This document shows, one piece after another, positions 7,345-45,093 of a stretch of DNA of 64,000 nt (its first letter is position 1; every line of letters begins with the position of its first letter). Source of the stretch: a plasmid. The notes under the pieces were generated by a model that searched no databases, was not told where the DNA came from, and was given only the letters and a program-made list of their open reading frames with translations. Position numbers and translations under genes: made by a program. The DNA is taken from the sequence record NZ_CP041325.1. One strand, written 5' to 3'.

Positions 7345-7710
7345 TTGGCAAAAGATATTTGTGATGTGGTCTGTATAGATGAAGAAAAGGTGGAACGAGT
7401 CCAGCAACAATTGGCGGAACAGAATCCATTGGAAGTGGCGAAAATCTTCAAGGCGTTGTCGGATGATACGCGTATCAAGATTGCCTATGCCTTATCGCTG
7501 GAAGACAAACTTTGTGTGTGCGACGTGGCGAATATCATCGGCTCTTCCACCGCAACCGCCTCCTACCACCTGCGCTTGTTGAAGAATATGGGACTCGCGA
7601 AATACCGCAAGGAAGGCAAATTGGTCTACTACTCGCTGGATGACGCACATGTAAAGCACTTGGTGCAAGTGGCCTTCCTTCAACAGAAAGAGGGTGTCAC
7701 GGTTGGTTGA
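7345..7710 (+). CDS. cadC: ArsR/SmtB-family metal-sensing repressor (CadC-like)
   Basis: Metal-sensing Cys pair (CDVVCIDEE) at the N-terminus, [27 protein letters not shown] (alpha3/alpha5 sites). TTG start with RBS AAAAAGGAG. Sits upstream of cadA. Confidence 0.75.
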
Positions 7711-10143
7711 AAAAACAAAGGAAACCGAAGACAAAACCGTTTACCGGGTTGAAGGCTTCTCGTGTGCGAACTGCGCGGGGAAATTCGAAAAGAACGTCAA
7801 GCAGATTCCTGGAGTCCAGGATGCGAAAGTGAACTTCGGAGCTTCCAAAATTGCGGTTTACGGCGCAGCGACGGTCGAGGAATTGGAAAAAGCCGGTGCC
7901 TTTGAGAACTTGAAAGTGGCACCGGAAAAACCGAAACGCCAACCGGTTCCCGAAATGAAGGTGGCAGTCGAAGACAAAAGTGTTTACCGGGTCGAGGGCT
8001 TTTCGTGCGCGAACTGCGCCGGGAAATTCGAGAAGAATGTGAAGCAGATTCCGGGCGTCCAGGATGCCAAAGTGAATTTCGGTGCATCTAAAATTTCTGT
8101 TTACGGAGCAGCGACCATCGATGAACTGGAGAAAGCCGGTGCCTTTGAAAACCTGAAGGTGGCGCCTGAAATCACCGGACGTCCAGCTATCCCGAATACC
8201 GGAACCGAAAAAGCGCCAGAACGAACAGAGAAGAAAGTGCCGTTCTACCAAAAGCATAGTGTCCTGCTCTACTCCGCCCTGCTGATCGTCTTCGGGTACG
8301 TTTCCCAATCGGTGAACGGAGAAGAAAACTTACTGACGTCCCTCCTGTTTGTGGCAGCCATTGCCATTGGCGGGTACTCGCTCTTCAAGGTCGGGTTGCA
8401 GAACTTGGTACGTCTGGATTTCGACATGAAGACCCTCATGACCGTCGCGGTCATCGGGGCAGCCTTTATCGGCGAATGGGCGGAAGCGTCCATCGTGGTC
8501 ATCCTCTTTGCGATCAGTGAAGCACTGGAACGCTATTCGATGGACCGGGCCCGGCAATCCATCCGTTCGTTGATGGACATTGCGCCGAAAGAGGCACTGG
8601 TCCGGCGGAATGGCCAGGAACTTCTAATCTCGGTGGACGACATTGTGGTGGGCGACACCATGATTGTCAGACCCGGCCAGAAGATTGCAATGGATGGCAC
8701 GGTGACTAACGGCTATTCGGCGGTCAATCAGGCAGCAATTACCGGTGAATCCGTGCCGGTTGCCAAGACCGTGAACGATGACGTCTTCGCCGGCACGCTG
8801 AACGAAGAAGGCTTGCTGGAAGTCCAAATCACCAAACTGGTCGAAGACACGACCATCGCAAAAATCATTCATCTGGTCGAGGGAAGCGCAGGGCGAACGC
8901 GCCCCATCACAGGCATTTGTCGACAAGTTCGCGAAATACTACACACCGATCATCATGGCAGTAGCTGCACTCGTGGCCATTGTTCCGCCTCTTCTGTTTG
9001 ATGCCAGCTGGGAAACCTGGGTTTATCAAGGATTAGCTGTTTTAGTGGTAGGTTGTCCGTGTGCGTTGGTTATTTCGACACCGATTTCAATCGTATCGGC
9101 CATCGGGAACGCAGCGAAAAAAGGCGTGCTAATCAAAGGCGGCGTCTACTTGGAGGAAATGGGTGCACTGAAGGCCATCGCGTTTGATAAGACCGGTACC
9201 CTGACTAAAGGAGTTCCGGTTGTAACGGATTTTGAAGTTATAAACAAACAAATAAACGAAAAAGAGCTGCTTTCCATCGTGACAGCGCTGGAGTACCGCT
9301 CGCAGCATCCCCTTGCCTCCGCCATCATGAAAAAAAGCGGACGAGGAAAATATCCCTTATACCTCTGTCTTAGTCGAAGAGTTCTCTTCCATCACCGGCA
9401 AAGGAATTAAAGGAACTGTCGAAGGAATTACGTACTACATCGGCAGCCCGACCCTCTTTACCGAGTTGGGCGCCGCAAGTACGGATAAGAACTTGGAACA
9501 AAATGTCACAGCTCTTCAAAATCAGGGCAAGACGGCCATGATCATCGGAACGGAACAAAACATCCTGGCGGTCATCGCCGTGGCCGATGAAGTCCGGGAC
9601 TCCAGCAAGGAAGTCATCCAGAAGCTGCACGACATGGGCATCAAGAAGACGATCATGCTGACGGGCGACAACAAAGCGACCGGTCAGGCCATCGGCCGAA
9701 AGGTCGGTGTCACGGAAATCCAGGCCGAGCTGATGCCGGAAGACAAATTGAATGTCATCAAACGCTTACGGGCCGAGTACGGCAAGGTGGCGATGATTGG
9801 AGACGGCGTGAACGACGCGCCGGCACTCGCCGCTTCTACCGTCGGGATTGCCATGGGCGGTGCTGGAACCGATACGGCTTTGGAAACGGCAGATGTCGCT
9901 TTGATGGGCGACGATTTGAGCAAGCTGCCATTCACGGTGAAACTCAGCCGGAAATCCCTGAATATCATCAAAGCGAACATTACGTTCGCCATCGGCATCA
10001 AAGTGATTGCGCTGCTGTTGGTCATTCCGGGCTGGCTGACCCTGTGGATCGCCATCATGTCGGATATGGGTGCTACTCTCCTGGTCGCCCTCAACAGTTT
10101 ACGGCTGATGCGCGTAAAGAATAAAGAAACAGCGTGCACCTGA
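7694..10143 (+). CDS. cadA: Cd2+/Zn2+-exporting P1B-type ATPase CadA with two N-terminal HMA domains; at least two frameshifts (about 8885 and about 9340)
   Basis: Two [15 protein letters not shown] repeats, CPC motif ([13 protein letters not shown]), DKTGTLT phosphorylation site, [10 protein letters not shown] hinge. Three consecutive ORFs in shifting frames are contiguous. Confidence 0.85.
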
Positions 10144-18150: not shown

Positions 18151-18579
18151 TCAGGCATCGGGGAAAATCCGCTGAAGGGACTCTTTCAACGCCGGTTTCA
18201 CGTTGATTTTCTGGCGGGCGGACGTGGCCTGGGCTTCCGCTTCTGCGATGCTGTCCGCCTTACCAAGGGATAACAGTGTGCCGATGGCCACCGTGCCGGT
18301 GCGATTGCTGCCGCCTGCGCAGTGGAAATAGATTTTTTTGCCGTCGTTGTAGGCGTCGACTACTTGATCGATCGCTTTCTTGACCGATTCATCCTGCTGG
18401 TCGTTGGAATCGTCCACAATGGGGCTGTGGACCCGGAGGTATTCGTACTCGCCTTCGGTCACTTCTGCACGCAAATCTACCACTAGGTCAATCTGTTCCG
18501 TGTCGACTGCGTCTTTGGCATCCGCTGCGCCGCCAATAAAAATGCGGTCCTTGACCAATTCCTGATAATTTTTGCTCAT
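18151..18579 (-). CDS. dual-specificity/tyrosine protein phosphatase-family protein (HCxxGxxRT P-loop); ArsP-like accessory gene
   Basis: HCAGGSNRTG catalytic loop; about 140 aa. Immediately downstream of arsA. Confidence 0.7.
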   Translation of the reverse strand: MSKNYQELVKDRIFIGGAADAKDAVDTEQIDLVVDLRAEVTEGEYEYLRVHSPIVDDSNDQQDESVKKAIDQVVDAYNDGKKIYFHCAGGSNRTGTVAIGTLLSLGKADSIAEAEAQATSARQKINVKPALKESLQRIFPDA

Positions 18580-18645
18580 GGTGTTTCCGCCTTCCGTGTT
18601 TTTGTCCTGTCATTTTGAAAATGAGGATTTCTTTGCCGGTCACCC

Positions 18646-20419
18646 TTACAAGATAAATTCTTTCAATTGGGTATAGCCGATTTTTTCCTCCTGCAACCAA
18701 GGGATTACGGCGCACTTGGCAGCCAGCTCTTCGTTCACTTTCGTGATCCATTTCTTCTCGGAACTCGCCCGGCCGCGCAAAACCGGGTCCGTCGTTTCCG
18801 TGGCGTACAAGCTTTGGTTGATGACCCACCATTTCGGCGCAATCTGCGCGCGCTTCAAGTCCTCTTGCAGCCGTGCCGCTTCGAGTACAGGCGTTGCTTC
18901 TGCCAGCGTCACGATGACCACACCGGTTTTCTTGTGGATTGCGCAAACGCGGCAACAGCTTCTTCACGTTCTCCGGCACGTCCCCGGTCGAACGGCTCAT
19001 TTCCTTGTGATACGCTTCCGTCGAATCCAACAGCAACAGTGTATGGCCGGTCGGGGCCGTATCGATGACGACAATTTCGTTCTCCGATTTCTCCACCACC
19101 GCCGCAAACGCTTGGAACAAGGCGATTTCTTCTGTACACGGCGATTCCAGGTCTTCCTGCAGGTAGGCCAACTCTTCGTCGCTCAGGCCGTTCCCGGCAT
19201 TCGCAAGAACCGTCTGTTTGTAGCGTTCGACTTCAATTTGGGGATTGATGCTGCTGATGGACAGATTATCTCGTGTTTCGCTGCCTGCAAAGGTATAGGC
19301 CAGATGGGCCGCCAGATCGGTGGTGGTCAAATGGACGCGATGCCCTTTTTCAGACAAGCCCACCGCAATGGCTGATGCAATCGACGTTTTGCCGCCGCCG
19401 CCTTTGCCCATCGTGAAGATGACCCGGGTATTTTTTTCCGAGAAATCTTCAATCACTTGGTTCAAGCCCGGAAGGGCCAGCGCTTCTTCGGTTGTGTCTT
19501 CCACTTCGAATGTCGTCATGGCATACGAGCTGAACAGGTGACGCAAGTTCTCCACGCCCGTCAGGGAATACGAAACGAACGGCAGCGCATACGTCATGAC
19601 CTGTTTCAAGGCTTCCGGTGTTTCCTGCAACGCTTGTCGCTGGCGGCTGTAGAACGCGGTCGAAACCGCATCTTCCGGCTGATGTGTCTGCAAGAGACCA
19701 TTCACGATCAGCAATTGGTTCCGAATGCCGATTTCCTTCAGTTCGCCTGATGCCCGGTCAGCTTCCAACAACGATGAATTGTCGGAACGCGCAATCAATA
19801 ACAACGTCGTCTTTTCCCGGTCGGAAAGCGAAGCGACCGCTTTGGCGTACATCTCTTTCTTGCCTTCCAATCCCGCCAGTGGCCCCAAACACGAAGCGCC
19901 ATGCGTACTTTCCTCCAGGAAGCCACTCCAAGCCGTCGGCAACTGCAACAGCCGTAACGTATGACCGGTCGGTGCCGTATCGAACAGGACATGATCAAAC
20001 TGGTCCAAGATGGTTTCATCCGCCAACAGATGCGAGAATTCGTCAAAGGCGGCGATTTCTACCGTACAGGCACCGGACAATTGCTCTTCCATGGTCGCGA
20101 GTACTGCATCCGGCAACTTGCCACGGTACGGGCCAACCACGTTTTCCTTGTAAGCGCGCGCTGATTCTTCCGGATCGATGTTGCACGCAGAGAGATTCGG
20201 AACACCCGGAATCGCCATCGGCTCATTCGTCAGGGCCACTTCCAGCACGTCCTGCAGATTGGAAGCCGGGTCGGTGCTGACCAGCAGCACACTTTTCCCT
20301 TGATCAGCCAAAGCGACCGCCGTGGCACAAGCCGTCGAGGTCTTGCCAACCCCGCCTTTTCCGGTGAAAAACAGGAACGGCGTCAGTGGCATGTTTTTTG
20401 GATTGAATAGCGAATACAT
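18646..20419 (-). CDS. arsA: arsenite-transporting ATPase ArsA (two-domain); one frameshift near 18950
   Basis: Two P-loops (FTGKGGVGKTSTACA... and TMGKGGGGKTSIASA), DTAPTGH signature motifs in both halves. The C-terminal 91-aa ORF 18646..18921 continues the protein. Confidence 0.85.
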
Positions 20420-20432
20420 AGAATGTGCTCCT

Positions 20433-20792
20433 TTACTTGCCAAAATTGACGGACACGCGTACCCGTGGCTTTTCCTGCAAGTCAGCTGGCGTGGTGTCGA
20501 ACCACTCCGCCAACTCTTCGTTGGTTGGATATGCCGCCACTTTTACGATTTCCCCATCGACCAGGACCACCGGAAGGGCTTCCGGTCCTTTTTCTACCAA
20601 TACTTGGTTGACGATTTCATTTTCAACAAAGGCACCGGGGTCACTCGTCAGGTTATAACGCGCAATCGTGAAGCCTTTCTTTTCAAGGGAATAGACTGCT
20701 GACGCGATTCTGGTTAAGTCCGGGTCTACCACGGGACCGCAGACACCGGTGGAACAGCACATCGCCGGATCGTAAATTTCGACTTTTTTCAT
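20433..20792 (-). CDS. arsD: arsenical resistance metallochaperone/repressor ArsD
   Basis: MKKVEIYDPAMCCSTGVCG (the Cys12-Cys13-Cys18 motif), about 120 aa; upstream of arsA. Confidence 0.8.
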   Translation of the reverse strand: MKKVEIYDPAMCCSTGVCGPVVDPDLTRIASAVYSLEKKGFTIARYNLTSDPGAFVENEIVNQVLVEKGPEALPVVLVDGEIVKVAAYPTNEELAEWFDTTPADLQEKPRVRVSVNFGK

Positions 20793-24603: not shown

Positions 24604-26244
24604 TTAACCGGCGCAGCAAGACAGTTGGGAAACATCCTTGTCGAACGTTAGCGCAGCCAGTTTCATCCCTTCCGCCATGGTCAGATACGGCGCGAGGGTT
24701 TCGTTAAGGTTTTCAATCGTCAATCCGAACTTCACAGCAAGTGTTACCGCATAGATAACATCCCCAGCATTTTCCGCTACGATATGCCCGCCCAGCAGCT
24801 GGCGTGTTTTTGCGTCCGCCACCAGTTTGAATACCCCAGTCGTTTCCCGGTTCACTTGCGCTCGCGGAACAGCCTCCAATGGCAGGACGGAAGTAATGAC
24901 GTCATAGCCGTTTTCTTTCGCCTGTTGCTCCGACAAACCAACCGTGGCAACCGCCGGTGCTGTAAACGTTACGCCCGGCACGACGGCTAAATCCAGTTTT
25001 TCACTCCGTCCACCGACCGCATTTCCTGCTGCCACTCGCCCTTGATAAGCCGCCACATAAACAAACTGGGGACCGAGCGTCACATCGCCCGCTGCATAGA
25101 TCCGTTCATTGGTGGTCTTGGCATAGTCATCAATCCGAATTTCCCCAAAGCGCCCTGTTTCAACACCCGCCGCCTGCAGATTCAAGCTTTCCGTATTGGG
25201 CTTTCGGCCAGCTGCAATCAGCAATTGATCGGATTCGATGATCCGCTTCTGGCCATCCACCTCGACATAAACTTTTTTCACCTCTCCGACCTGTTCAATC
25301 CGCTCATAAGAGGCACCGGTCACTAACCGAATGCCTTGCTCGGTCAACGCTTTCGTGAGGGCTTCCGAGATTTCCGGATCATATTCCTTAAACAAACGCG
25401 AACTTCTTTGCATCAGCGTGACTTCGGATCCGAGGTGGTGAAATAGCTGACCCAATTCCACACCAGTATAGCCGGAACCGATGACCGTCAAGCGTTTCGG
25501 CACTTTCTTTAGCTCCAATAAAGCTGTGCTGGTCAAGTAATCCACTTCTTCCAGTCCGGAAATGACTGGCACAGCAGGAGCCGCCCCCGTTGCAATCAGA
25601 AATCGTTTGGCAGATAGCTTCATGCCATCCACTTCAATGGTATGTTCATCTATAAACCTGGCTTCCCCTTTGATCAACTCAAAACCGTAGTCATCAATCA
25701 AATCGACATATTTCTTGTTCCGGAGATCCGTCACCAATTCCTCTTTCTGTTTGACCAGCTGAGCCAAATCCACTTCATCCGCAGAGGTGTGCAGTCCGAT
25801 AAACGGGTTATTCCTGGCCAAGTGATTGATTTCTCCCGCCCGCAACAAGGTTTTGGAAGGAACACAGCCAATGTTCACACAGGTACCGCCTACCGTTCCC
25901 CGTTCAATCATCGCCACTTTTGCCCCATGTTTCACAGCTTCGATGGCGGAAGAAAAGGCAGCTCCCCCCGAACCGATGATGATGTAGTCATACTCACCTT
26001 CTTCATCCGGGTGGGGTGCTTCTGGGGTTTGGACTTCTTCCGCTTCCCCCGGCTGATACTTGGCTTCAGCAATTGCTTTTTTTGCCGTTTCAACTGCCAT
26101 GTCTTCCGGCAGTGCAAACACGGCTTTTCCTTTTAGGAAGTCCGCTTGAATCTCTTTTGCGCCAATTCCGTCGAGCGCGACTGCAATGTGTTCTTCGCAT
26201 CCTGCGCAAGTCATCCCTTGAACATCTATTCGATAATTTTTCAT
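24604..26244 (-). CDS. merA: mercuric reductase MerA with one N-terminal HMA (NmerA) domain
   Basis: GMTCAGC HMA motif, FAD site [10 protein letters not shown], redox-active [14 protein letters not shown]-terminal vicinal Cys (SCCAG). Confidence 0.9.
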
Positions 26245-31692: not shown

Positions 31693-33663
31693 TTATAGAA
31701 GCGTCCGTAAGTCTTCTGCTTCTTTTTCTTTCAGTCGGTCTTCAATGGTTGGTTCCGGCGTTTCCTCTTCTACGGGCCATTCTTCTTCAAATTCATCAAA
31801 TCCCAAATCAAAGAGCTCCGACTGATCAATCTCCTCTTCGATGATTCGGGTACCGCCGGAAGCTGCGGGTGGCGTTAAATCTGGCAATTCTTCCGGCTCC
31901 TCTGCAAACTGCACAGCTCCCAAGCTCTTGGGTTCTGGAGAAGGTGCCGGCTGCTTTCCTTGGAACTGTTCCACGTAATTTCCGAAAACTTCTGATTGCC
32001 ACGCTTTCTGCAGCTTCATCGGGTGAAGGCCGCTGACAAATAGGTAACAGTCGTTTCGGGAAATGCTGGCCAAGTCCCCTTCTGGAATCAAGGAACGTTT
32101 GACATATTGTTCCGACTGACTCCGGCTGGCGCTTGATTTGCCGCTCATGAAGCCGCCGCTTTGGCTTGAAGAGCCGGTCTGGATTTTCGCGGTGGTTTCC
32201 CCGGCAAGCTGCGAGAAGTACTTGATGGTTTCCATGTCTTTGCTTCGCAGGTACAACAACGTATCATGGTTGGACAAAATCGAGCGGGCCATTTCTTTTC
32301 CGTAAATGGATTCAATCTGGCCATTGTCCTGCACAATGGTATTCATCGATAAGCCAAGTCCCCGGCAGGTAGCAAGGACCCTTCCGTACTTCTCGATTTT
32401 TCCGATGTTCGCAAATTCATCCAACAAGAAGATGGTCGGGATTTTTAGTTTCCCTTTGTTTTCATCCGCCATCCTATAGAACTGGGAAATCAACTGATCA
32501 AAGAACACCGAAGTCAACGCAGTGAAGGGATTCTCGTCCATCGGCAGCTTCACATATAGTATGCTTTTCTGCTTCTGGAATTCCCGGAAATTGAAATCGC
32601 TTTTACGCGTCATGTCGCTGATTTTCTTCAACGTAAAAATGCTGACCTGTGAAGCGAAGGATGATGTAACACTCGCTCTCGTGTTGCCGCCAAGCGTCGT
32701 CAATCCTTTCAGCAGTTCGTAAGCTGGATGCCCTTTTCCGAGCTCCTCATCCACCCATTCTCGGAAGGTTTCTTCATCAGGTGCCACCTTTTCATTAAAG
32801 ACATCCAACACATCCTGCATGCTGGCACCCGGAATTTCCGTCTTGCAGTAAACGATCAAGCCGGCGAGCATCTTCTGTGCCCGTTCCATGAAGAAATCCT
32901 CTTTCCCGTCTTTCGTCGAGTTCTTCGCAATGGTCACCGATACACTTTGGGCATCCTGATCATCGAATACATAATCAAGCAGGTTGTAGCCGTCTTGGTT
33001 GAAATTAATAAAGTCAATTTGAAAGACCTGATAGCCTTGCTCTCGCTTGATTGCGGCTGTCTGGTCGAAGAGTTCCCCCTTTGGATCGGTGACAATCAAC
33101 GTTTCCTCTTTGTTATTGAGCAGGTTTGGAATGACAAAGGACTGGCCTTTCCCACTACCACTGGATCCGACAATGTAGACGTTCCGGTTGTCGATTTCGG
33201 TTGACCGAGGAATGACAAGTACTTGTTTCTTTTCCGGTACACGGCCCACAATCAATCCGTTTTCCAAAGCACTTAAGGTCTTTTCCGGTTGAGAAGGATA
33301 AAACTTATTCTGCTTCGAAAAGTGTTTCGCATTGATTACTTCATGCGGTTGGGTGAAACGTGCCGACCCGTGAACACCGAAGTCATGCGCATCTTCGTAT
33401 CTTTCTTCAAATAATCGTATTTTTGATAGGAACCATCCGAGGAAGACAACACTCAGCACTCCGACCAACAGCTGCGTCTGACGGTCCGCTTGTTCCGTGA
33501 TAAAAGATAAGGTGCCGGATACATCCAGAAGGATGGCATTCAAGTCCCCTTTCTCGTTGATGAAACGTAGAAACCCCGTCAGCACATAGCCGACCAATAA
33601 AGAAAGGAGGACGGCAATGCCGATTTTTACTCCCGCCCCTTTTTGCAGTTTCTTTTTCGCCAT
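31693..33663 (-). CDS. type IV secretion coupling protein (VirD4/TraG/TraD family T4CP)
   Basis: Two N-terminal TM helices, Walker A VGSSGSGKGQS, Walker B IFLLDEFAN, acidic C-terminal tail. 656 aa. Confidence 0.85.
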   Translation of the reverse strand: MAKKKLQKGAGVKIGIAVLLSLLVGYVLTGFLRFINEKGDLNAILLDVSGTLSFITEQADRQTQLLVGVLSVVFLGWFLSKIRLFEERYEDAHDFGVHGSARFTQPHEVINAKHFSKQNKFYPSQPEKTLSALENGLIVGRVPEKKQVLVIPRSTEIDNRNVYIVGSSGSGKGQSFVIPNLLNNKEETLIVTDPKGELFDQTAAIKREQGYQVFQIDFINFNQDGYNLLDYVFDDQDAQSVSVTIAKNSTKDGKEDFFMERAQKMLAGLIVYCKTEIPGASMQDVLDVFNEKVAPDEETFREWVDEELGKGHPAYELLKGLTTLGGNTRASVTSSFASQVSIFTLKKISDMTRKSDFNFREFQKQKSILYVKLPMDENPFTALTSVFFDQLISQFYRMADENKGKLKIPTIFLLDEFANIGKIEKYGRVLATCRGLGLSMNTIVQDNGQIESIYGKEMARSILSNHDTLLYLRSKDMETIKYFSQLAGETTAKIQTGSSSQSGGFMSGKSSASRSQSEQYVKRSLIPEGDLASISRNDCYLFVSGLHPMKLQKAWQSEVFGNYVEQFQGKQPAPSPEPKSLGAVQFAEEPEELPDLTPPAASGGTRIIEEEIDQSELFDLGFDEFEEEWPVEEETPEPTIEDRLKEKEAEDLRTLL

Positions 33664-33692: not shown

Positions 33693-35760
33693 CTACAGCT
33701 CGATTTCCAGACCCAGGTGACGCCGCATTCGGGTATTCCGTCCTTTGCGGTTCAGCTTTGAAAGTTCCCCTGGATCTTTTTCATAACTGTTTGGATGTGC
33801 GGCCTGCCGGACCAAATTATCCAGTAATTCCGTACTTGCCTGGCCGCTCGGAAAATGTCCGGTTTGTTGCTGGTCGATAGTCAAGCGCTGATAGAATGAG
33901 CCGCTTTGCTGATTTCGATAATTTACAAAAGAAGCATGGCGTTTTCTCCTGTTCTTTCAAAGCGGCATGTAAACACACTTTGAAAGAAGGTTCTTTCTGG
34001 AAAGCCGCTTCTTTTGCGAAATGCTTTAATAAATCGGCTTTCATTTCAAGCGGCAGCGCCTCCGTTTTTTCGCAGCAAACGCTCTTTTGCATGAGGGAAT
34101 TTTTCCCGGGCAAGATCGTTCAACTGTTTATCGAAATGCATCGCTTTTTTCTTGATATCGCTCCACCAGCTTCTGCGCTGTATTGAGCTTCACCGATGTC
34201 TCATAAAGGGCGTCCAGGTCTTTGCCAACCTTCAGCAACTTTTTCTTTTTCATTTCCTAATTTGTTTCGGACGAGTGACTGAATCCGGATGCTGTCACTT
34301 ACCTTCTCCGCTTGGCTGCATACCTTTTTCAGTTCGTGCAGCTGCAATCGATGATTCATTTCATGAGACGGTGGAACCCGGTGCCATTCTCCGTTTTTCA
34401 TCGCTTCAAGGAGTTCCGCTTTGAAGTCGGCAGTCCGATCATTGTATCCATAGCGGTCTTCGATATCCGGATACAGTTCATTGAACGCATTGTGCACTAT
34501 TAAGCTCTGTACCCGGAAGCTTCGTTCCAAATGAGCGGTGACGGTTTTATTGGTTTGCTTTTTCTTTTTCCGCCGCTTCGGCAAGCTTTTCAAACGTCTC
34601 TAAACGTTCAGTAAAGACGGTTAAGAAACCTTTGACGGGAAATCCTTGGTCTTTCACAGTGGCAACGTTTCGGTTCTGGTAAGCGCTGTGAGTTGCGTTC
34701 AAAATGGCGTGCATGACGTCAGTTTTCACTTGCTTAGGTTCCAACGTGCGCTCTTCCCAGCGATAGAGTCCTTCCAGCTGTTTATGAACTGCCTGGAACG
34801 TCACATTCTCCTTTTAAGCGGCCCTCCATAAAGCGCATGCTCTTTTGATAATCCGTGTCCAGATGCTGAGTTACTTCCACAGAATGGCGATGAAGAATGG
34901 ACTGAACATCAACTGATTTCTGCTTTTCCGTAAGGAAGGAAATCTTCTGATTGAGCTGTTTGATTTCGGCGTTGGTCTTCCGGATTTCCTGGTTCAATTG
35001 GTGGTAAAAGGTCTTCGCTTCCAGTCCTTTTTTTCTCCATTCGTTTGACATACTGGTATTCGTTTCGTTCCAATCGGACTTCCGGTATCCGGTCCAGCCC
35101 CTGCTCTTCAAAGGAAAGCGCAGAAACGGTTTTCTTGATGCCGTGTTCCTTAAAAGTCTGGTTGATGGCTTCGGCATAATCGAGCCGCCATTGGACGAGG
35201 GTTTCCCGTTCATTCCAATTTGTCGAAGAAACCGTTTGGAAAACTTTTTCACCAGTATCGTTTCGGAGGATCTCACCGTCTTGGTCGTATTCATATTGGC
35301 GGACTTTCTTGTTCCCCCAGCTGCCGTCTTCATTGAACGGACGGACAGTCAACAAAATATGCGCATGGGGATTATGTGCTTTGTCCCGGTGAATGGAGAC
35401 ATCCGCTACCATGCCGGCATCGACAAATTCATTTTGAACGAACCGCTGAACAAGTTTGTGCTGCTGATCCGCGGTCAATTCAATTGGCAAAGCGATAAGC
35501 ACTTCACGGGCCAACTGAGCATTCCAGGCTTTCTCTACCTTTTCCACTTCGTTCCACAGTTTTTCACGGTTGAGTGTCCATTCAGGTGCATGGTCAGGCT
35601 TGAGGATGAAAGAGACCGGAGCCACTTCCCTCTTCCGGAAGCTTTTCATCTCTTCGTCCCTCTCGGAATACAGCTCTTCTCCGCTCCGGTAACTGGCACT
35701 GGCCACAGCGGATTGATTTTTTTTGCTGATGATGTTGGCTTGCAGTCGGAAATAGCTCAC
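33693..35760 (-). CDS. MobA/MobL-family (MOBQ-type) conjugative relaxase; interrupted by at least 5 frameshifts (true pseudogene or read errors)
   Basis: N-terminus MSYFRLQANIISKKNQSAVASASYRSGEEL (catalytic Tyr region), HNPHAHILL 3-His motif. Six overlapping ORFs tile about 686 codons. GTG start with RBS AGAGGTGAG. Confidence 0.8.
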
Positions 35761-37333: not shown

Positions 37334-37606
37334 ATGAAAAGTACAGGCATTGTAAGAAAGTTAGACCAACTAGGAAGAATCGTTATTCCGAAAGAACTTA
37401 GAAAAGTGTTAGATATAAATGAACGTGACCCTCTCGAAATATTCATTAATGAGGAATTAATCGTATTAAAGAAATACTACGTAAAAAACGCCTGCATCGT
37501 TACAGGAGAAATTTCAGATGAAAATAAAGAATACGCTCCTGGACTCATTTTAAGTCCTAGAGGTGCTGAAATGGTTCTTAATATGCTAATGCAAGAAACG
37601 AAGTAA
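37334..37606 (+). CDS. AbrB/SpoVT-family transcriptional regulator (swapped-hairpin N-domain), paralog of 55479..55730
   Basis: TGIVRKLDQLGRIVIPKELRKVLDI matches the AbrB-N signature. RBS AAAAGGAG. Confidence 0.7.
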   Translation: MKSTGIVRKLDQLGRIVIPKELRKVLDINERDPLEIFINEELIVLKKYYVKNACIVTGEISDENKEYAPGLILSPRGAEMVLNMLMQETK

Positions 37607-37993
37607 AAATATAAATCGTTGCGGCCCTATACCTTGTTGACGGTGTAGTTTTTTTTCTGTAATACTTTAAGTAATTTTCTATTTAAAAATAATAGACAAA
37701 AAGAAAATACACGCCATTAACGGCGAGCATCTTCTTTTATATTCGCTTCTAATTATTTTATTTTTTTTAAAAGGATTTGAGAAAATCTAATATTTTAAAT
37801 ACAGAGGTTCTTGATTAGCTTTAGAATTGTTTATTTTATTCTTTAAAACTGCCAATAAACTTATGATATGTAACCCTATATCCTTTTGAAATTCAAGCTT
37901 TAAAGCCTTATAGAACAACGTTTTGAATGTATCTTTTCTCTAATGAAACCATTACAGTATGATTTTCTGGTGAAATCAATGGAATCAAGGAAC

Positions 37994-38027
37994 TGAATGT
38001 AACTTAATTTAGATTAAGTTACATTCA
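37994..38027. repeat. palindrome copy 1: TGAATGTAACTTAAT-TTAG-ATTAAGTTACATTCA
   Basis: Perfect 15-bp arms. Copies 2 and 3 are at 38661-38698 and 39489-39522. Confidence 0.8.
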
Positions 38028-38040
38028 AATTTTATGTGAA

Positions 38041-38620
38041 TCACTCTACAACCAGATGGAAACGCTCAGTCTCTTGCAGAAAGTCTTCCCTGGTAAGCTG
38101 TTGGCCTGAAATATTTTGCCGATAAGAAGTGATAGTCCCGTCATGCGTGACAATATAGATTTTCTTGCGTTGAAAGCTCCGGCAAAAATCAATGAAATCT
38201 TCGATCAGTAGGTTAAATTCATTATCAGGTAGAACATTAATGCCTGTTGACCATAACGAAGAAGCAAGATTTGGGACAGGAACAAAAGAAGGGAATTCAT
38301 CTTGAACTCTTTCTAAATCAAGCAATTCATCACATGGCAATGTTTTTGCAGCCAATCGTGTAGGGGAATATACGGGGCGCTGCCAATGGATGCACCACTT
38401 TATTGCACTCTATGTTTTCACTCCAGATCGAGGCGGTTTGGAGGGTTCTTAAAGTTGGACTAACAATTAAAATGTCTTCCCGAGTTAACGGAAGAGTGGA
38501 TTTTAAATTTTCCGCCTGCAGCCTCCCTTGTACGGTTAACGAAGGATGACCCAATTGCAAACTTTCCGGTAAATTCGTTGTATGTTCGCCTTGTCCATGA
38601 CGAATAAAAATCAATTCCAC
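38041..38620 (-). CDS. histidine phosphatase-family protein (phosphoglycerate mutase-like, RHG motif); one frameshift near 38340
   Basis: N-terminus MELIFIRHGQGEHTTN (the catalytic RHG motif). Two contiguous ORFs. Confidence 0.6.
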
Positions 38621-38660
38621 TTTTCTTCCCCCCTAGTAACGACTCTTTTATTTAATTGAA

Positions 38661-38698
38661 ACTGAATGTAACTTAATTCACAATAAGTTACATTCAGT
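38661..38698. repeat. palindrome copy 2: ACTGAATGTAACTTA-N9-TAAGTTACATTCAGT
   Basis: Same 14-15-bp arm sequence as copy 1 with a different spacer. Confidence 0.8.
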
Positions 38699-38709
38699 TA
38701 AAGATTTTT

Positions 38710-39438
38710 TCAAGTCAGATGTTGATTGCCATGAAAAATGTTTAGAATGAAATCTTTTTCCGGGACTGCTAGCCTTTCATAGCCTGCTAAAAAATCTTGA
38801 TTATTGTAACGCACTTCTTCCAATTCGACCTTGAGATCGTCAGTCGTTATCGAAATTGTGGCGTATCTCGCAAAGGGCTTGTCGTGACATCCAAGCGATC
38901 CGGGGTTTAAATATATTCTGCTTTCTGATGAAAAAAAGTGCACGGGATGATGATGGCCGAAGCTTATTAAATCAAATGGAGAATCCCTATAAATATCATG
39001 AAGTTTTTTGGCAGAAGGCTCAGTGTCAATGGCTATAAATTGCTTCTCGGCATCCAAATGATAATGGGTAAACAAGAGTTTCTTACCTTCGTACTCCACA
39101 ATTAATTCTTTCGGTAATTCGACGATGTAGGGAATAAATTTTTTATCTAGACGATTTGCTAGCCATTCATGATGAATTTTTTCCCCACCTTGGCTAACAC
39201 TTTCTTTCCCTTCTAAAATCGCTATGATTTCTTCTTCATGGTTTCCCATCACAAAAGATATATCATTTCTAGAAAAAAGAATTTCAAGAACTTCATTTGT
39301 TTCATAACCAATTCCAACCATATCCCCTATACAGTAAATATGATTTATTTCGGGATTTTGATCTATTTCATTCAATACCGCGAGCAAAGCAGCACTATTC
39401 CCATGTACATCTGTAATTACAGCGATTTTTGTACTCAT
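38710..39438 (-). CDS. calcineurin-like metallophosphoesterase (YfcE/MPP family)
   Basis: Metal-ligand motifs DVHGN, GDMVG, GNHE, and a downstream His cluster (FGHHHPVHF). Confidence 0.75.
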   Translation of the reverse strand: MSTKIAVITDVHGNSAALLAVLNEIDQNPEINHIYCIGDMVGIGYETNEVLEILFSRNDISFVMGNHEEEIIAILEGKESVSQGGEKIHHEWLANRLDKKFIPYIVELPKELIVEYEGKKLLFTHYHLDAEKQFIAIDTEPSAKKLHDIYRDSPFDLISFGHHHPVHFFSSESRIYLNPGSLGCHDKPFARYATISITTDDLKVELEEVRYNNQDFLAGYERLAVPEKDFILNIFHGNQHLT

Positions 39439-39488
39439 GAAATCATCCTCCGTTTCCTTCCATTTCTTCTCAGAGTTTCATTGATTTT

Positions 39489-39522
39489 TGAATGTAACTT
39501 ATCTGCACATAAGTTACATTCA
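39489..39522. repeat. palindrome copy 3: TGAATGTAACTTAT-CTGCAC-ATAAGTTACATTCA
   Basis: Same arms as copies 1 and 2; about 50 nt upstream of the phosphoesterase start. Confidence 0.8.
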
Positions 39523-39692
39523 AATCCTAGTCTTCGCCCCAAAACTTCTACTTGGAATTTACCGGCCCTTTTTTCAATTCGTCCAGGTCGGTTTGCAGCT
39601 GATGAAACATAGCCAATAGCTGTTTTTATCGTTCCTGGCTCTTTTCTTTTGTTCTTTTGAAGTCTTTTACTACTGCTCAGATAAATTAGAGC

Positions 39693-40094
39693 TTAGCAGG
39701 ATTTTATGGACTGTAGAGCACGAATAGCACTTGTTGCATGCTCTCCCCAATGCATTTTAAGACCGAATTTCCAGTGCCATACCGCTTCTAGTTCATGACC
39801 GTGCTCATATAAAATTAACCCTTTCTTAATCTCGCTGTATATATCTGTAATATCGTCCTCAAGACAACCTTTTACCGGTGTTGTATCGCAATAAGGATTG
39901 AATATCTCCAGGTATACGTTATAGCTTTTAAATTCTACTTTTGGCAGCGGAAACTTCAAATCGATTGAATGTTCTTCTTTAGGTTCTACTTCTGGTAGCT
40001 CTAGTGCTTTTGCGTATAGTTGAGAAAGGCTTTTTAAAAGTTTGCTCAAATTCTCCTTCTCTTCAAAAAGAAATGTGTGAATCGATAAAGTCAC
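39693..40094 (-). CDS. hypothetical protein (133 aa), possibly DUF5063-like
   Basis: Clean ORF; C-terminal WHWKFG...HWGEHA motif. Domain assignment is from memory only. Confidence 0.4.
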   Translation of the reverse strand: MTLSIHTFLFEEKENLSKLLKSLSQLYAKALELPEVEPKEEHSIDLKFPLPKVEFKSYNVYLEIFNPYCDTTPVKGCLEDDITDIYSEIKKGLILYEHGHELEAVWHWKFGLKMHWGEHATSAIRALQSIKSC

Positions 40095-40414: not shown

Positions 40415-40563
40415 ACCTTCCCCCCTTTAGATTGTCTTATCTTAATGAATAAGTCTTAAAAGCAGTAATGGGCTTTAGGGTAATTATGTATTTGAATGAC
40501 AATCAAACTCTATAATCTTTAGCCCCTAAACTTGTAAACATGATTTAAAAACTATTTTACATT

Positions 40564-40619
40564 CGCATGCAAGTATGCGCATATACTAGCATGCATGCAT
40601 ACGCATATGCTTGCATGCG
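40564..40619. repeat. ATGC-box array A: about 7 tandem 8-bp units (NNNNATGC)
   Basis: ATGC/ATAC boxes recur with 8-bp phasing (GCATGCAAGTATGCGCATATACTAGCATGCATGCATACGCATATGCTTGCATGC). Confidence 0.8.
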
Positions 40620-40669
40620 AAAAATAAAAAGTTTGCTGATTTAAATTATTGAAAAATACCCTATCAGAA

Positions 40670-40706
40670 GTAGAAATATCTACCTTACAAAGGTGGATAT
40701 TTCTAC
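40670..40706. repeat. inverted repeat GTAGAAATATCTACC-N7-GGTGGATATTTCTAC (copy 1 of 2)
   Basis: 15-bp arms, one mismatch; a second copy is at 41349-41385. Both lie about 50 nt after an ATGC array. Confidence 0.7.
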
Positions 40707-41233
40707 TTTTCTTGAATTTGTTTGTAATAAGAAACAAGCAAAAGGAATTCAAACTTTATTAGCTTAAACCGAAAATTTATTTGAAGTAGGGTATGTAACG
40801 GTTATTTTGTATTTGAGATTTGTTTAATGGTTATTTCTTCTTCCACCGTCAATACAAAAAGTAATTGAACTTTCAACGACATTATCCTTTTGCTATAGAA
40901 AATGAAAATCCCAAATAAAGAAGATGAAGCACATTTAATAGCTATTACAAATGAATTTTTTTCTCCTTTAAATATAAGCAACTTTATTACTCGAGCTCAA
41001 CACTTACTGTTTATCTTTAAGATCACTTTAAACATATTCCCTTATATGTATTGGAATTCCTGCGTTACTATATTCCCTCCGCGATGTTTAGTATGAAAAT
41101 CAAAATCGCTTATTCTTTTTAACCTGCGAGTACAAATAATCAGCTGTAATGAAAAATTTTGCTATTGCAATTCCAATAAAACAGTAACTCTTGTCCTCCT
41201 CTCCTTTTAAAAGAGAAGACGAATCTTACTTTT

Positions 41234-41306
41234 TGTATACGTGTATACATGTATGCGTGCATGCACATATGCAAGCATGCACGTATGCGCGCATACGAAT
41301 AAAGCA
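41234..41306. repeat. ATGC-box array B (about 9 units)
   Basis: Same 8-bp phased YATGC boxes. Confidence 0.8.
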
Positions 41307-41348
41307 AAAATGATAGTATGTTCTAGAATACTCATCCAATAGCATAAG

Positions 41349-41385
41349 TAGAAATATTCACCTTTGTGAGGTAGATATTTCTACT
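41349..41385. repeat. inverted repeat GTAGAAATATTCACC-N7-GGTAGATATTTCTAC (copy 2 of 2)
   Basis: Near-identical to 40670-40706. Confidence 0.7.
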
Positions 41386-41544
41386 TGCTGCAACTCTCAA
41401 CAGGATAAGTAACGTATATAAAATTCTGGATGATTCTTCAAAGATGTATAGAAGAGAAGACGCTGTTATAAACAGAAGTGAATACTTGGCTGGTTAACAA
41501 CTGCTACTGGCAGCTATACTTTAATCAATTGAAATTTTCACTAG

Positions 41545-41608
41545 TCATATACAAGTATGCGCATATGCTAGCATGCGTGCATGCACGTATACATATATGC
41601 AAATATAC
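41545..41608. repeat. ATGC-box array C (about 8 units)
   Basis: Same motif family, about 290 nt upstream of parA. Confidence 0.8.
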
Positions 41609-41899
41609 TACTAAACAATAGTATTTGAGAAAGGACAATCACCCTTTATATTAATGATATTAAAGATGCTAGCTTATTTAGGGGATGACTCATGTTTAAG
41701 TGCGTGGAATTTAAAGAATCGATAGAGTGGTTAACTCTTGAGGATTATGAATTTTAATTAAGTAAATAAATGCAATATAGTTGTATGAAAATTTCCTAAA
41801 ATTGTTTGAACAAAGTTTTCCACAATGATATACTTGCATATGTTAGCATAAAACATTTTATGACAATTAAAATACATAATGAGATGGGGGAACAAGAAG

Positions 41900-42730
41900 A
41901 TGAAAAAGAACGACAGAGCGACCGTAGTGACGTTCGGTAATTTTAAAGGCGGCACAGGCAAGACGACCAACAGTACGATGATTGCATATGCTTTATCGGG
42001 TATGGGGTATAGAGTCTTACTGAGTGACCAAGACCCACAAGCGAATGCAACAAGCTTGTATCTGAAGACAAAGTCGGAAATCTCAGATGAAGTCGTAAGC
42101 TTCAATAAAACATTGATGACGGCCATCCAGGAAGAAAACCTCGAACAAATCGTTACGGAAATTAAAGAGAACTTGTATTTGCTTCCAAGCTTCAGCGATT
42201 TTGCTTTATATCCGAAATTATTAGAGAAGAAGTTCGTCAACGAAGTGGATCGTGTCCAATACTTTTCCAAATTGATTGAACCGTTAAAGGAAGATTTCGA
42301 TTTTATTTTCATCGATGTTCCTCCAACGATCTCAATTATCACGGATTCAGCACTATATGCTTCTGATTTTGTGGTGGTGGTTCTGCAAACGCAGGAACGG
42401 AGTCTACAAGGGGCAGAAGTATTTACTAAGTATCTCCAATCACTTATTGACGATTACAGTGCTGATTTAGACATTATCGGGATCCTCCCGGTATTGCTTA
42501 AGAACGGGGCAGCAGTTGATTTAGCAACTTTGGAAAATGCGAAAGAGATTTTCGGCGAAGAAAACATGTTTAATATCGTGGTAAAAAATATGGAGCGCTT
42601 GAAGCGTTTTGACATGACAGGCATCACAGATGATGACATGCATGATAGACGCGTGCATGAGAGCTATAAAGCAATTGCTGCGGAATTCATCTCAAGATTG
42701 AATGCTGAACTTGAAAGGGTGAGCCAGTAA
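41900..42730 (+). CDS. parA: type Ib ParA/ParF-family partition ATPase (small, no N-terminal HTH)
   Basis: Deviant Walker A FGNFKGGTGKTT, about 277 aa; followed by a small RHH gene. Confidence 0.85.
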   Translation: MKKNDRATVVTFGNFKGGTGKTTNSTMIAYALSGMGYRVLLSDQDPQANATSLYLKTKSEISDEVVSFNKTLMTAIQEENLEQIVTEIKENLYLLPSFSDFALYPKLLEKKFVNEVDRVQYFSKLIEPLKEDFDFIFIDVPPTISIITDSALYASDFVVVVLQTQERSLQGAEVFTKYLQSLIDDYSADLDIIGILPVLLKNGAAVDLATLENAKEIFGEENMFNIVVKNMERLKRFDMTGITDDDMHDRRVHESYKAIAAEFISRLNAELERVSQ

Positions 42731-43721: not shown

Positions 43722-45093
43722 TTGGTCAGATCCAAAGAGCACTTATCGACCTCAGAAGGAGTTCGCGGCTATATTGTCACTTCCATGGAAACTCTCTTGG
43801 AGGATTCTTTTGGCATTTCTCACTGGAATCCTAATGTAGCGAACTACTTAAGGTATTCTGATAAAAAAAGACGGCACATCAAGGGATTGGAAGAGAAGAA
43901 CCTGCAACAAATCAACACCTTCGTCGTTGACATTGATTCCAAAAAGCAGCCCTATACAGAAATCCTGACTGCCGCCCTTGATCACAGCATCGGCATACCC
44001 ACTTTAGTCTTGGAAACACCAAAAGGTTTTCAGGCTTATTTTGTGTTGGAGAAACCGTTGTTCATCAGCAATCAAAACGATTATCGCGGTTTGAAAGTGG
44101 CTAAACGCATTTCAGAAAACATCAAACGCAGCTTGGCGGAAGTTTTGCAGGGAGTGGACATCTCCTGCAACGACTTCGGCTTTTTCCGCATGCCTCAAAA
44201 AAGACAACATCCGCTGGTTCTCAGAAGAAATGGTCTACGACTTCGGCAGTTTGATTGCTTGGTCCAAACGCCAGGATGATAACCGGGGTCGCGGGTTATT
44301 TGTGGTGCCTGGAAAAGAAGCGCCGCAGGATCCGACACAGTCCGAATGGTTCCGGGAATTGTTGGCGACTCGTCACGTAAAAGGGGGCGAGGGGCAGATT
44401 GGCCGGGACAATCTGATGTACACGATTGCCTTAGCCTGTTTTAGTGCCGGGAAGGGGAGAGGGGAGGCTCTCGACTTACTTGATGAATACAATTCAGGAC
44501 TTCATGCACCGATGCGTCATAACGAGGTGGAGAAAATCGTCAGAAGCGCATATAAAGGACGTTTCAAAGGCGCACATCAGGAATACATCCGTGAACTATT
44601 GGAAAGCTGGACGAACAAGAAGGATCTGGTCATCGAAAATTCTTTTGGTGGCTGGTACAAGTTCAAGAAAGAACGGAAGGACCGGAAGCGAAGCCATTAT
44701 GAAGAATGGGAAGAGGATCTGCTTGCCTATATCCAACAGGCCACTAGTTTGGAGCAACCAGTAAAATGGACCACACAGAAAGCAATCTGTGAAGAACTCG
44801 GAATGGCCAAAAGCACGTTCAACGAAGTGATCCGCAAATCCAATCGGATTCTGATCAAACGAAAAGGAAAAGGCTGCAGAGCACAGACCGGATTGACATC
44901 GGTGGCTGTGCTTCTTCAGTGTGCCCTTGCTTACAATCAAACACATCGTGCAGCATACTACGAAACGATCCGCTTGATGAACACAGAGCATGAAAACCAG
45001 GAAGCACTGCGAGAGCTTGATAACCTCCTGGACCTACACGCATTTGAAGTAAAACAGCAAAGGATGAATGGTAAAATTTTCAATTCTTCCTAA
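43722..45093 (+). CDS. rep: plasmid replication initiator with primase-like/PriCT-type domains; one frameshift near 44215
   Basis: N-terminal region GIPTLVLETPKGFQAYFVL (replicase/primase-like core). C-terminal region with a winged-helix-like segment. The two ORFs overlap 44230-44279 in adjacent frames. Confidence 0.55.

Follow-up and report, generated by a model that had tools for sequence, protein, structure and literature searches.

Lox-like 34-bp palindromes in ordered arrays across Planococcus: candidate core sites of a recombinase-mediated cassette system

The stretch of plasmid DNA considered here, 64,000 nucleotides of sequence record NZ_CP041325.1 (hereafter the window), carries three copies of one palindrome that flank a metallophosphoesterase gene and a histidine phosphatase gene. 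It raises the question of why two phosphatase genes should stand between identical palindromes to which they have no functional tie. We find that the palindromes belong to a family of 34-bp sites occurring throughout Planococcus and close relatives, and that they probably represent (we put the probability at about 60%) lox-like core recombination sites of a truncated multi-slot cassette array of a Planococcus/Planomicrobium-wide type, with a 187-aa recombinase as the enzyme. On this reading the sites delimit interchangeable cargo, and the two genes would lie between them with no functional tie to the palindromes.

All three palindromes were found where an initial annotation of this DNA had placed them, flanking the two genes, and they are real and non-random: with up to two mismatches allowed, the 13-nt arm matched eight times in the window, against 1.7 matches expected, and none of 100 shuffles reached eight. 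Each copy is a 34-bp unit in which the 13-nt arms TGAATGTAACTTA and TAAGTTACATTCA flank a spacer of 8 nt. The spacers, which on the plus strand read ATTTAGAT, ATTCACAA and TCTGCACA, are each exactly 8 nt long. Read on the minus strand, copy 3 is TGAATGTAACTTA-TGTGCAGA-TAAGTTACATTCA, with the spacer core GTGCAG (class B, as defined below), while copy 2 has the spacer TTGTGAAT with the core TGTGAA (class A) and copy 1 the spacer ATCTAAAT with the core TCTAAA (class D). The spacers of 4, 9 and 6 nt from which the initial annotation had argued reflect chance extra complementarity; measured against the conserved 13-nt arm all of them are 8 nt, and since this length is constant in all copies the geometry is fixed and not variable. 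Its suggestion that the arms are under selection, however, is supported, and the selection is sequence-specific. A scan of the 64-kb window, relaxed matching included, detected no further full copies. A 33–35-bp stretch of copy 2 that includes the spacer matched five Planococcus plasmids at 100%, and a megablast search of the region against plasmids matched only the palindrome itself, in unrelated gene contexts. The window thus has the class order B, A, D on the minus strand, in which both the direct orientation and the order characteristic of the family are kept.

To describe this family, we scanned one genome per species for the exact arms, and at least 120 genome stretches matched. Among the exact-arm matches listed, nearly all were from Planococcus, Planomicrobium or Metaplanococcus, on chromosomes as well as plasmids, and the carriers included megabase contigs as well as 5–15-kb plasmid-like contigs. 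The family statistics given below refer to sites in the ~0.9 Mb around these matches; loci from this and the related searches are cited by L-numbers where they need to be told apart. An 8-nt spacer was present in 207 of 208 exact sites, and a relaxed scan that allowed arm mismatches found 379 sites. Conservation is limited to the 34 bp, flank logos showing none beyond, which leads us to reject a miniature inverted-repeat transposable element (MITE) or any longer repeat. The sites are intergenic, at a median of 43 bp 3′ of a stop codon, among small, mostly uncharacterised accessory genes. Changes in the arms within the genus were one-sided in 260 cases and compensated in 21; this predominance of one-sided changes indicates that, within the genus, selection acts on the sequence of the arms and not on their pairing.

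The spacer is asymmetric, reading W-T-N-N-N-A-A-T in one orientation, so that the sites have a polarity. Neighbouring sites within 3 kb of each other were in the same orientation in 100 cases and in opposite orientation in 5, and the polarity of the sites agreed with the direction of flanking co-oriented genes in 98 cases and disagreed in 18. The central six bases of the spacer sort the sites into classes, positions 1 and 8 varying within a class: class A has the core TGTGAA (89 sites), class B GTGCAG (86 sites) and class C TAGCAA (51 sites), and class D is a group of diverse cores. These classes follow one another in a fixed order. The transition from B to A was seen 67 times, from A to C 38 times, from A to D 30 times and from C to D 34 times, whereas A was followed by B only twice; after a class B site, the next site was of class A in 67 of 79 cases. 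The beginning of the order is often marked by a gene for a MerR-like protein, the 3′ end of which lies directly upstream in 22 of 85 B sites, the one in the window included. Neighbours with an identical core were absent altogether (0 of 220; 39.8±5.1 were expected, and 5000 shuffles never gave fewer than 22). The class order was the same on contigs of at least 100 kb and on smaller ones, and an independent metagenomic locus (L131) has the sites B, A, C and D, followed by the recombinase gene.

Clustering of all open reading frames (ORFs) of the loci revealed this recombinase, a 187-aa protein common to 26 loci, all of them small contigs. It matches the Pfam family Phage_integrase with an E-value of 1.6e-21 and thus belongs to the tyrosine recombinases; residues R47, K71, H135, R138, H161 and Y170, which are of the catalytic type, are invariant, and the nearest solved structures are the catalytic domains of XerA. 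The small plasmids that carry it share one layout, in which the MerR-like gene is followed by a B site, cargo slots separated by further sites, a D site, a leader, the recombinase gene and a gene for a Rep_3 replication protein, often with a MobV relaxase gene. On these plasmids the B site lies 5–22 bp past the stop codon of the MerR-like gene, the distance from the D site to the start of the recombinase gene is ~205 bp in most loci (~390–470 bp where a small ORF intervenes), and the leader, which is conserved, contains one or two additional half-sites that resemble an arm and are directly oriented. MerR, the sites B, C and D, the integrase, Rep and MobV are united in one circle in the complete 6.8-kb plasmid NZ_CP025127.1. 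The recombinase family is found on Bacillota plasmids in 2657 PLSDB records. Among the features of lox-, FRT- and dif-type core sites, the palindromes have inverted arms and an asymmetric spacer, and a linked recombinase is present in related loci, though not in the window.

Two further observations concern recombinases at these loci. The 13.6-kb contig CANLRI010000012.1 (L109 and L011) holds two Rep_3 genes and two genes for the 187-aa recombinase, and its D sites share the spacer ATTAGGAT; this is the appearance that a cointegrate formed from two small plasmids at sites of one class would have, though an assembly artefact could also be the reason. A 205-aa serine recombinase of the resolvase/invertase type is encoded within a few kb of the arrays in five loci (L051 5938–6555, L078 3319–3936, L003 7844–8461 and two more).

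The sites coincide with the boundaries of DNA that differs from locus to locus. The content of the slots is hypervariable, with 50 distinct cargo clusters in 67 B-to-A slots. When all loci were aligned against each other, 1078 of 6497 alignment ends fell within 25 bp of a site centre, concentrated at the outer edges of the arms. Among 50 locus pairs with shared cargo, 40 share neither flank past the bounding sites and none shares both; conversely, 80 of the 89 pairs with exactly one shared flank have unrelated cargo. The comparison of L079 with L107, which come from two species, shows this in a single case: the two share 89% identity as far as the D site, at whose edge the similarity stops, and none is left in the C-to-D slot (354 versus 634 bp); at the C-site edge identity resumes, at 96%, and continues across the following slot until the A-site edge, past which the two are unrelated. 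The initial annotation had proposed a cassette or MITE-like delimiter. The break of homology at the site edges bears out the first half of that proposal, and the restriction of conservation to 34 bp goes against the second.

Outside the Planococcus lineage, sites and recombinase vary together. Homologues of the recombinase in the Bacillus cereus group (57% identity) have a 34-bp 13-8-13 palindrome of their own ~100 bp upstream of the gene, and in 80 metagenomic loci, with homologues of 56–91% identity, many lineages have a 13-8-13 site 100–120 bp upstream, always with an 8-nt spacer and with consistent polarity. The outer TGAATGTA is conserved across lineages, while the inner bases change on both arms together, lineage by lineage. 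In a set of 22 sites, double-sided changes occur at arm positions 9–11, and the arm covariation score was 0.284, compared with 0.083 after shuffling (none of 500 shuffles was as high). These lineages usually have one site per locus, and the arrays therefore seem to have expanded in Planococcaceae specifically; a lone site would resemble a plasmid resolution site or an operator. No 13-8-13 site of the family type was found upstream of distant homologues (41–47% identity) in Enterococcus, Paenibacillus and Carnobacterium. The Carnobacterium plasmid pCAR50, whose homologue is 41% identical, has a different palindrome of 14-10-14 geometry (L128 2926–2963) 29 bp upstream of the start codon, and its spacer holds a TATAAT box, a hint that expression in this lineage is autoregulated at the promoter.

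We propose that the 187-aa plasmid-borne tyrosine recombinase most likely acts on the 34-bp palindromes as core sites, which it would bind and cut. If recombination requires identity of the 6-bp core, the sites that neighbour each other in the order B, A, C, D would be mutually incompatible; as their cores differ, they would not recombine with one another, and the array would be stable. Where two replicons carry sites of one class, in contrast, these could recombine, and two such events, or the formation of a cointegrate and its resolution, would swap the intervening DNA, in what would amount to natural recombinase-mediated cassette exchange with heterospecific sites. Exchange of this kind would explain why sites and their order are conserved beside hypervariable cargo, and it covers at once the lox-like geometry of the sites, their polarity and shared direct orientation, the class order without identical neighbours, and the breakpoints at the site edges. 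A large conjugative metal-resistance plasmid probably acquired the array in the window from a small plasmid or island, and the array now lacks the recombinase. As a more tentative extension, possible though not one we would rely on, we suggest that these elements together form an undescribed cassette system of Planococcaceae that would fill the role of integrons in Gram-positive bacteria, in which ordered slots bounded by mutually incompatible lox-like sites, and a minimal 187-aa recombinase supplied by ubiquitous small Rep_3 plasmids, would let plasmids and chromosomal islands swap cargo.

Several observations weigh against the proposal that the palindromes are recombination sites of this enzyme. 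The primary set of sites came from a search for exact arms, so that the conservation of the arms within Planococcus is inflated. In the recombinase, the Pfam match covers residues 31–175 of 187, and no core-binding domain can be recognised at the N-terminus. Most chromosomal arrays, like the array in the window, have no recombinase gene, and action in trans, chromosomal arrays included, must therefore be assumed. The site upstream of the recombinase gene could be only its operator, and breakpoints at the sites would likewise result if RecA recombined identical 34-mers. The fidelity of cargo families to one slot type is partial, with 72 of 111 in the majority slot, which means that strict same-class exchange cannot be the sole route. 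Finally, in the Bacillus-type locus L204 three sites (at 4819, 5315 and 12204), two of them adjacent, have the same spacer TTGAATAA, and the rule against neighbours with identical cores may not hold outside Planococcaceae. Given the partial slot fidelity and the identical spacers of L204, a simple exchange model is incomplete.

How, then, do other explanations of the same palindromes fare? Passive repeats resembling repetitive extragenic palindromic (REP) elements could be shuffled by ordinary homologous recombination of identical 34-mers with no dedicated recombinase. Breakpoints at shared repeats are equally expected from this process, the lack of a recombinase gene near most arrays would need no comment, and a preference for same-class partners would be automatic, because only members of one class are identical over all 34 bp. 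Such repeats, however, leave unexplained the 13-8-13 geometry of 207 of 208 sites, their strict polarity and direct orientation, the class order, the position upstream of the recombinase gene, the lineage-wise co-variation of the arms and the complete lack of identical neighbours; in addition, a length of 34 bp barely reaches, or falls short of, what efficient RecA recombination usually requires. A gene of the IS200 or REP-associated tyrosine transposase (RAYT) type (Y1) gave no tblastn match in the 208 loci, a weak negative, obtained with a single IS200 TnpA probe. We consider passive repeats unlikely. That the palindrome might prove to be a generic REP-like or terminator element had been raised by the initial annotation itself: its occurrence is indeed genus-wide and independent of particular genes, but its nature appears to be that of an ordered family resembling recombination sites, and not that of a REP element or terminator. 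Quite unlikely, in our judgement, is the explanation that the palindromes are operators of a regulator that silences or coordinates the cargo, whether the MerR-like protein, the recombinase as an autorepressor or an AbrB-like protein. The fixed, dimer-like geometry and the selection on sequence instead of pairing (260 one-sided against 21 compensated changes) would suit an operator, a MerR-like helix-turn-helix gene lies directly upstream of many B sites, and the different palindrome of the Carnobacterium homologue overlaps the −10 box of the recombinase promoter. The sites, however, lie at a median of 43 bp past stop codons and too near the following gene for a promoter to fit in between, and operators alone explain neither the ordered classes nor the lack of identical neighbours nor the breakpoints at the edges. 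The idea of an operator bound by the AbrB-like protein encoded nearby, put forward in the initial annotation, founders on the same position past stop codons and the same edge breakpoints; the AbrB gene, real as it is (37334–37606), is outside the conserved module and has no homologue in any of the 208 loci, so that a link to the palindromes is not supported.

Two explanations start from the ability of the palindromes to fold. As single-stranded hairpins similar to attC, they might be recombined during conjugation or replication in the manner of integrons; they are perfect palindromes that form stable hairpins (−18 to −20.6 kcal/mol), they lie at the 3′ ends of cassettes like attC, arm changes across lineages preserve pairing, and the arrays occur on mobilisable and conjugative plasmids. 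Identity of the spacer is not needed for attC recombination, though, so that neither the class order nor the ban on identical neighbours is predicted; within the genus it is the arm sequence and not the pairing that is conserved, there are no extrahelical bases or imperfect R and L boxes, and the recombinase is not an IntI, as it has 187 aa and its Pfam alignment is continuous, with nothing inserted at the place where IntI proteins have their specific segment. No Rfam family matched at the sites, a search that covers the attC models if they are in the library. All this makes attC-like recombination very unlikely. Transcription terminators, or hairpins that stabilise the mRNAs of the preceding genes, would suit the position of the sites 14–60 bp past stop codons, their stable RNA hairpins and their polarity, which follows the genes. 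On the coding (minus) strand, however, no U-tract follows the stem, terminator-like calls being antisense only, and the stems are AT-rich with 3–4 GC pairs; moreover, it is not terminator-like for one 26-nt sequence to recur at hundreds of unrelated genes in many species, or for spacers to fall into ordered classes. We find this explanation hardly credible, and the view of the initial annotation that the palindromes are delimiters and not simple terminators agrees with the missing U-tract on the gene strand and with the break of homology at the edges.

Some further candidates were rejected. An origin of transfer (oriT) for the MobV relaxase does not fit sites that have no mob gene beside them and of which a plasmid carries many more than one, and a search of a viral contig collection gave no match that would point to phage origin. 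The palindrome is also not a chromosomal dif/Xer site: dif-like 28-mers (ACTTCCGATAA-N6-xATATGTxAACx), present in three loci (L108 4723–4750, L047 6321–6348 and L099 4999–5026), differ from it. These 28-mers have 4–6 mismatches to what we take to be the dif sequence of B. subtilis, and they lie 1–4 kb from the palindrome arrays in the three genomes. In the complete chromosomes L006 and L028, array matches are at ~50% of chromosome length. From this position and the proximity to dif-like 28-mers, chromosomal arrays may cluster near the replication terminus. The 9-mer ATGTAAACT, common to the Bacillus-type arm and to what is presumably the XerD arm of B. subtilis dif, has the opposite orientation in the two, relative to the site centre, and was treated as coincidental.

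Coming back to the window, the proposed reading as a cassette array is matched by the arrangement of its parts (Table 1). On the minus strand the remnant of a MerR-like gene is followed by the B site, the metallophosphoesterase gene, the A site, the frameshifted histidine phosphatase gene, the D site and the leader. In blastn searches, positions 39486–39645 are 84–89% identical to the 3′ end of the F4 gene plus the B site in more than 10 loci, and the ORF list contains no intact ORF at the remnant. At the other end, the D site plus leader match the array ends of more than 15 loci at 80–87% identity over ~180 bp, and the first 80 bp of the leader also match the region between D site and recombinase gene of small plasmids. 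A homologue of the 187-aa recombinase was not found in the window (tblastn at 1e-3; best hmmsearch E-value 0.17). This 1.8-kb segment inside a large plasmid is thus a truncated array of two slots, which has cargo of its own and no recombinase gene.

Table 1. Parts of the palindrome array in the window (positions in the 64,000-nt stretch).
Feature	Position	Strand	Remarks
Palindrome copy 1	37994-38027	minus	class D (terminal) site; exact arms
Palindrome copy 2	38663-38696 (maximal 38660-38699)	minus	class A site; exact arms
Palindrome copy 3	39489-39522	minus	class B site, opens the array; exact arms
MerR-like gene (family F4), 3′ end remnant	39530-39673	minus	tblastn, F4 residues 138-185, 65% identity
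Slot 1 cargo (B to A): calcineurin-like metallophosphoesterase, 242 aa	38710-39438	minus	Pfam Metallophos_2, E 8e-20
Slot 2 cargo (A to D): histidine phosphatase (branch 1)	38041-38620	minus	His_Phos_1
Array-end leader 3′ of the D site	37842-37993, ~150 bp	minus	conserved in other array ends
Extra arm-like half-site in leader	37924-37936		TGAATGTATCTTT on the plus strand
Second, weaker arm-like half-site in leader	~37865-37876

The domain matches agree with the initial annotation of the enclosed genes as a calcineurin-like phosphodiesterase and a PGAM-like phosphatase. The metallophosphoesterase also has weak YfcE/ApaH-like matches in NCBIfam. The histidine phosphatase gene consists of two overlapping ORFs with a frameshift near 38330–38355, the RHG motif being in one frame and THDG in another; its domain match is limited to the N-terminal part, and even in a conceptually repaired protein it covers only the N-terminal 70 residues. 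The gene is probably a pseudogene, or else a sequencing error is behind the frameshift. The tblastn searches of the 208 related loci found no homologue of either enzyme or of the AbrB-like protein, and the homology of the window to other loci consists of backbone pieces and sites, not of the two enzyme genes. The expectation that the palindrome might travel with this gene pair is therefore not borne out, the element being generic to the genus; nor did PADLOC return any match that would speak for a role of the enzymes in defence or counter-defence. The best reading is that the two enzymes are incidental cargo and that the AbrB-like gene is unrelated.

Around the array, a DUF5063 gene (39693–40094, minus strand) lies directly upstream of the MerR-gene remnant. 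Unlike the two enzyme genes and the AbrB-like gene, it recurs, with homologues 66–67% identical in two loci, L082 and L092, and it may be former cassette cargo, because both of these loci are rich in palindromes. The window as a whole is a Planococcus-type metal-resistance plasmid, conjugative or mobilisable, parts of which are 77–80% identical to Planococcus plasmids. It encodes a P-type ATPase with HMA domains, ArsA and a MerA-like reductase with an HMA domain, as well as a type IV coupling protein, a MobA/MobL relaxase and a PriCT primase (plasmid gene coordinates 7694–9001, 18488–20443, 24604–26244, 31693–33663, 34909–35760 and 44230–45093). Three clusters of ATGCATGCATACGCATATGC-type repeats (40543–40621, 41229–41307 and 41549–41611) and a 47-nt repeat with a palindrome (40662–40708 and 41340–41386) lie just upstream of a gene for a ParA-type ATPase (41879–42730), and the repeats of 40543–41611 may be a centromere or iteron region. 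Sub-threshold Rfam matches within them (plastid psbA 3′UTR, miRNAs) look like chance.

In architecture the palindromes equal loxP, which has 13-bp inverted repeats around an asymmetric 8-bp spacer, 34 bp in all, with a 6-bp crossover region. The Planococcus sites have the same 13-8-13 architecture, and their classes vary at the central 6 bp of the spacer, positions 1 and 8 being free. The logic of the arrays is that of engineered recombinase-mediated cassette exchange with incompatible lox spacers. In sequence, however, loxP and the Planococcus sites are not similar, and the Planococcus recombinase is not Cre-like, Cre being a 343-aa two-domain phage enzyme with a single natural site that serves circularisation and dimer resolution; we know of no natural multi-site ordered arrays for Cre. 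The archaeal XerA/dif system likewise uses one recombinase on near-identical arms, and it provides the nearest solved structures, but XerA has ~290 aa with a core-binding domain and acts on one chromosomal 11-6-11 site, without cassette arrays. In TnpI, the core site (of Tn4430, IRS) has adjacent accessory repeats, which the half-sites in the leader of the D site resemble; TnpI itself, with ~284 aa, resolves transposon cointegrates and has no cassette arrays. REP/RAYT elements share with the Planococcus family short palindromes at gene 3′ ends, many copies and restriction to a genus. They are, however, imperfect, single or in inverted pairs and scattered genome-wide, with a Y1 (IS200-like) transposase, whereas the Planococcus sites are perfect, polar and arranged in ordered direct arrays.

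Two known systems that move gene modules by site-specific recombination also bear comparison. Integrons have small, mostly co-oriented hypervariable genes with a palindromic site after each and a tyrosine recombinase at one end, and their arrays, like those of Planococcus, are found on plasmids and chromosomes. Their attC sites, however, are imperfect palindromes of 57–141 bp, conserved in structure and not in sequence and recombined as single strands, and IntI, of ~320 aa with a specific extra domain, is promoter-proximal beside attI. The Planococcus arrays have instead 34-bp perfect, sequence-conserved palindromes in ordered classes and a 187-aa recombinase at the distal end. Complete integrons have not been found in Firmicutes (PMC4889954). 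The closest known system is that of the dif modules on Rep_3/OrfX plasmids of Acinetobacter. These modules are bounded by XerC/XerD sites (pdif) and have been described as unique to that genus; their rearrangements use sites with identical spacers and proceed via cointegrates (PMC13141974). Here too, small Rep_3 plasmids combine a conserved backbone with accessory modules delimited by short two-arm sites with a spacer, and the same modules recur in different contexts, the cargo including toxin-antitoxin and miscellaneous genes. Yet pdif sites are 28 bp long (11-6-11), have distinct XerC and XerD arms, resemble chromosomal dif and use the host XerC/XerD, and their orientation alternates (C and D modules), whereas the Planococcus sites, of 34 bp (13-8-13), have identical arms, a fixed class order and an orientation that is the same in 100 neighbouring pairs against 5 opposite, occur in chromosomal arrays too, and are accompanied by the plasmid-encoded 187-aa recombinase.

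A published description of the Planococcus element was not found in the literature, in searches that included the arm sequences, Gram-positive dif modules and natural heterospecific exchange, and the array system, structured and genus-wide, is thus apparently undescribed. Recognition of the sites delimits accessory modules in Planococcus genomes at once during annotation, and a small recombinase with co-varying 34-bp sites could supply orthogonal recombination tools. If the proposed mechanism is true, this would be the third independent module system based on site-specific recombination, after integrons and the dif modules of Acinetobacter, and the first in Bacillota, and in its ordered incompatible spacers nature would have an equivalent of the heterospecific-lox exchange used in genome engineering.

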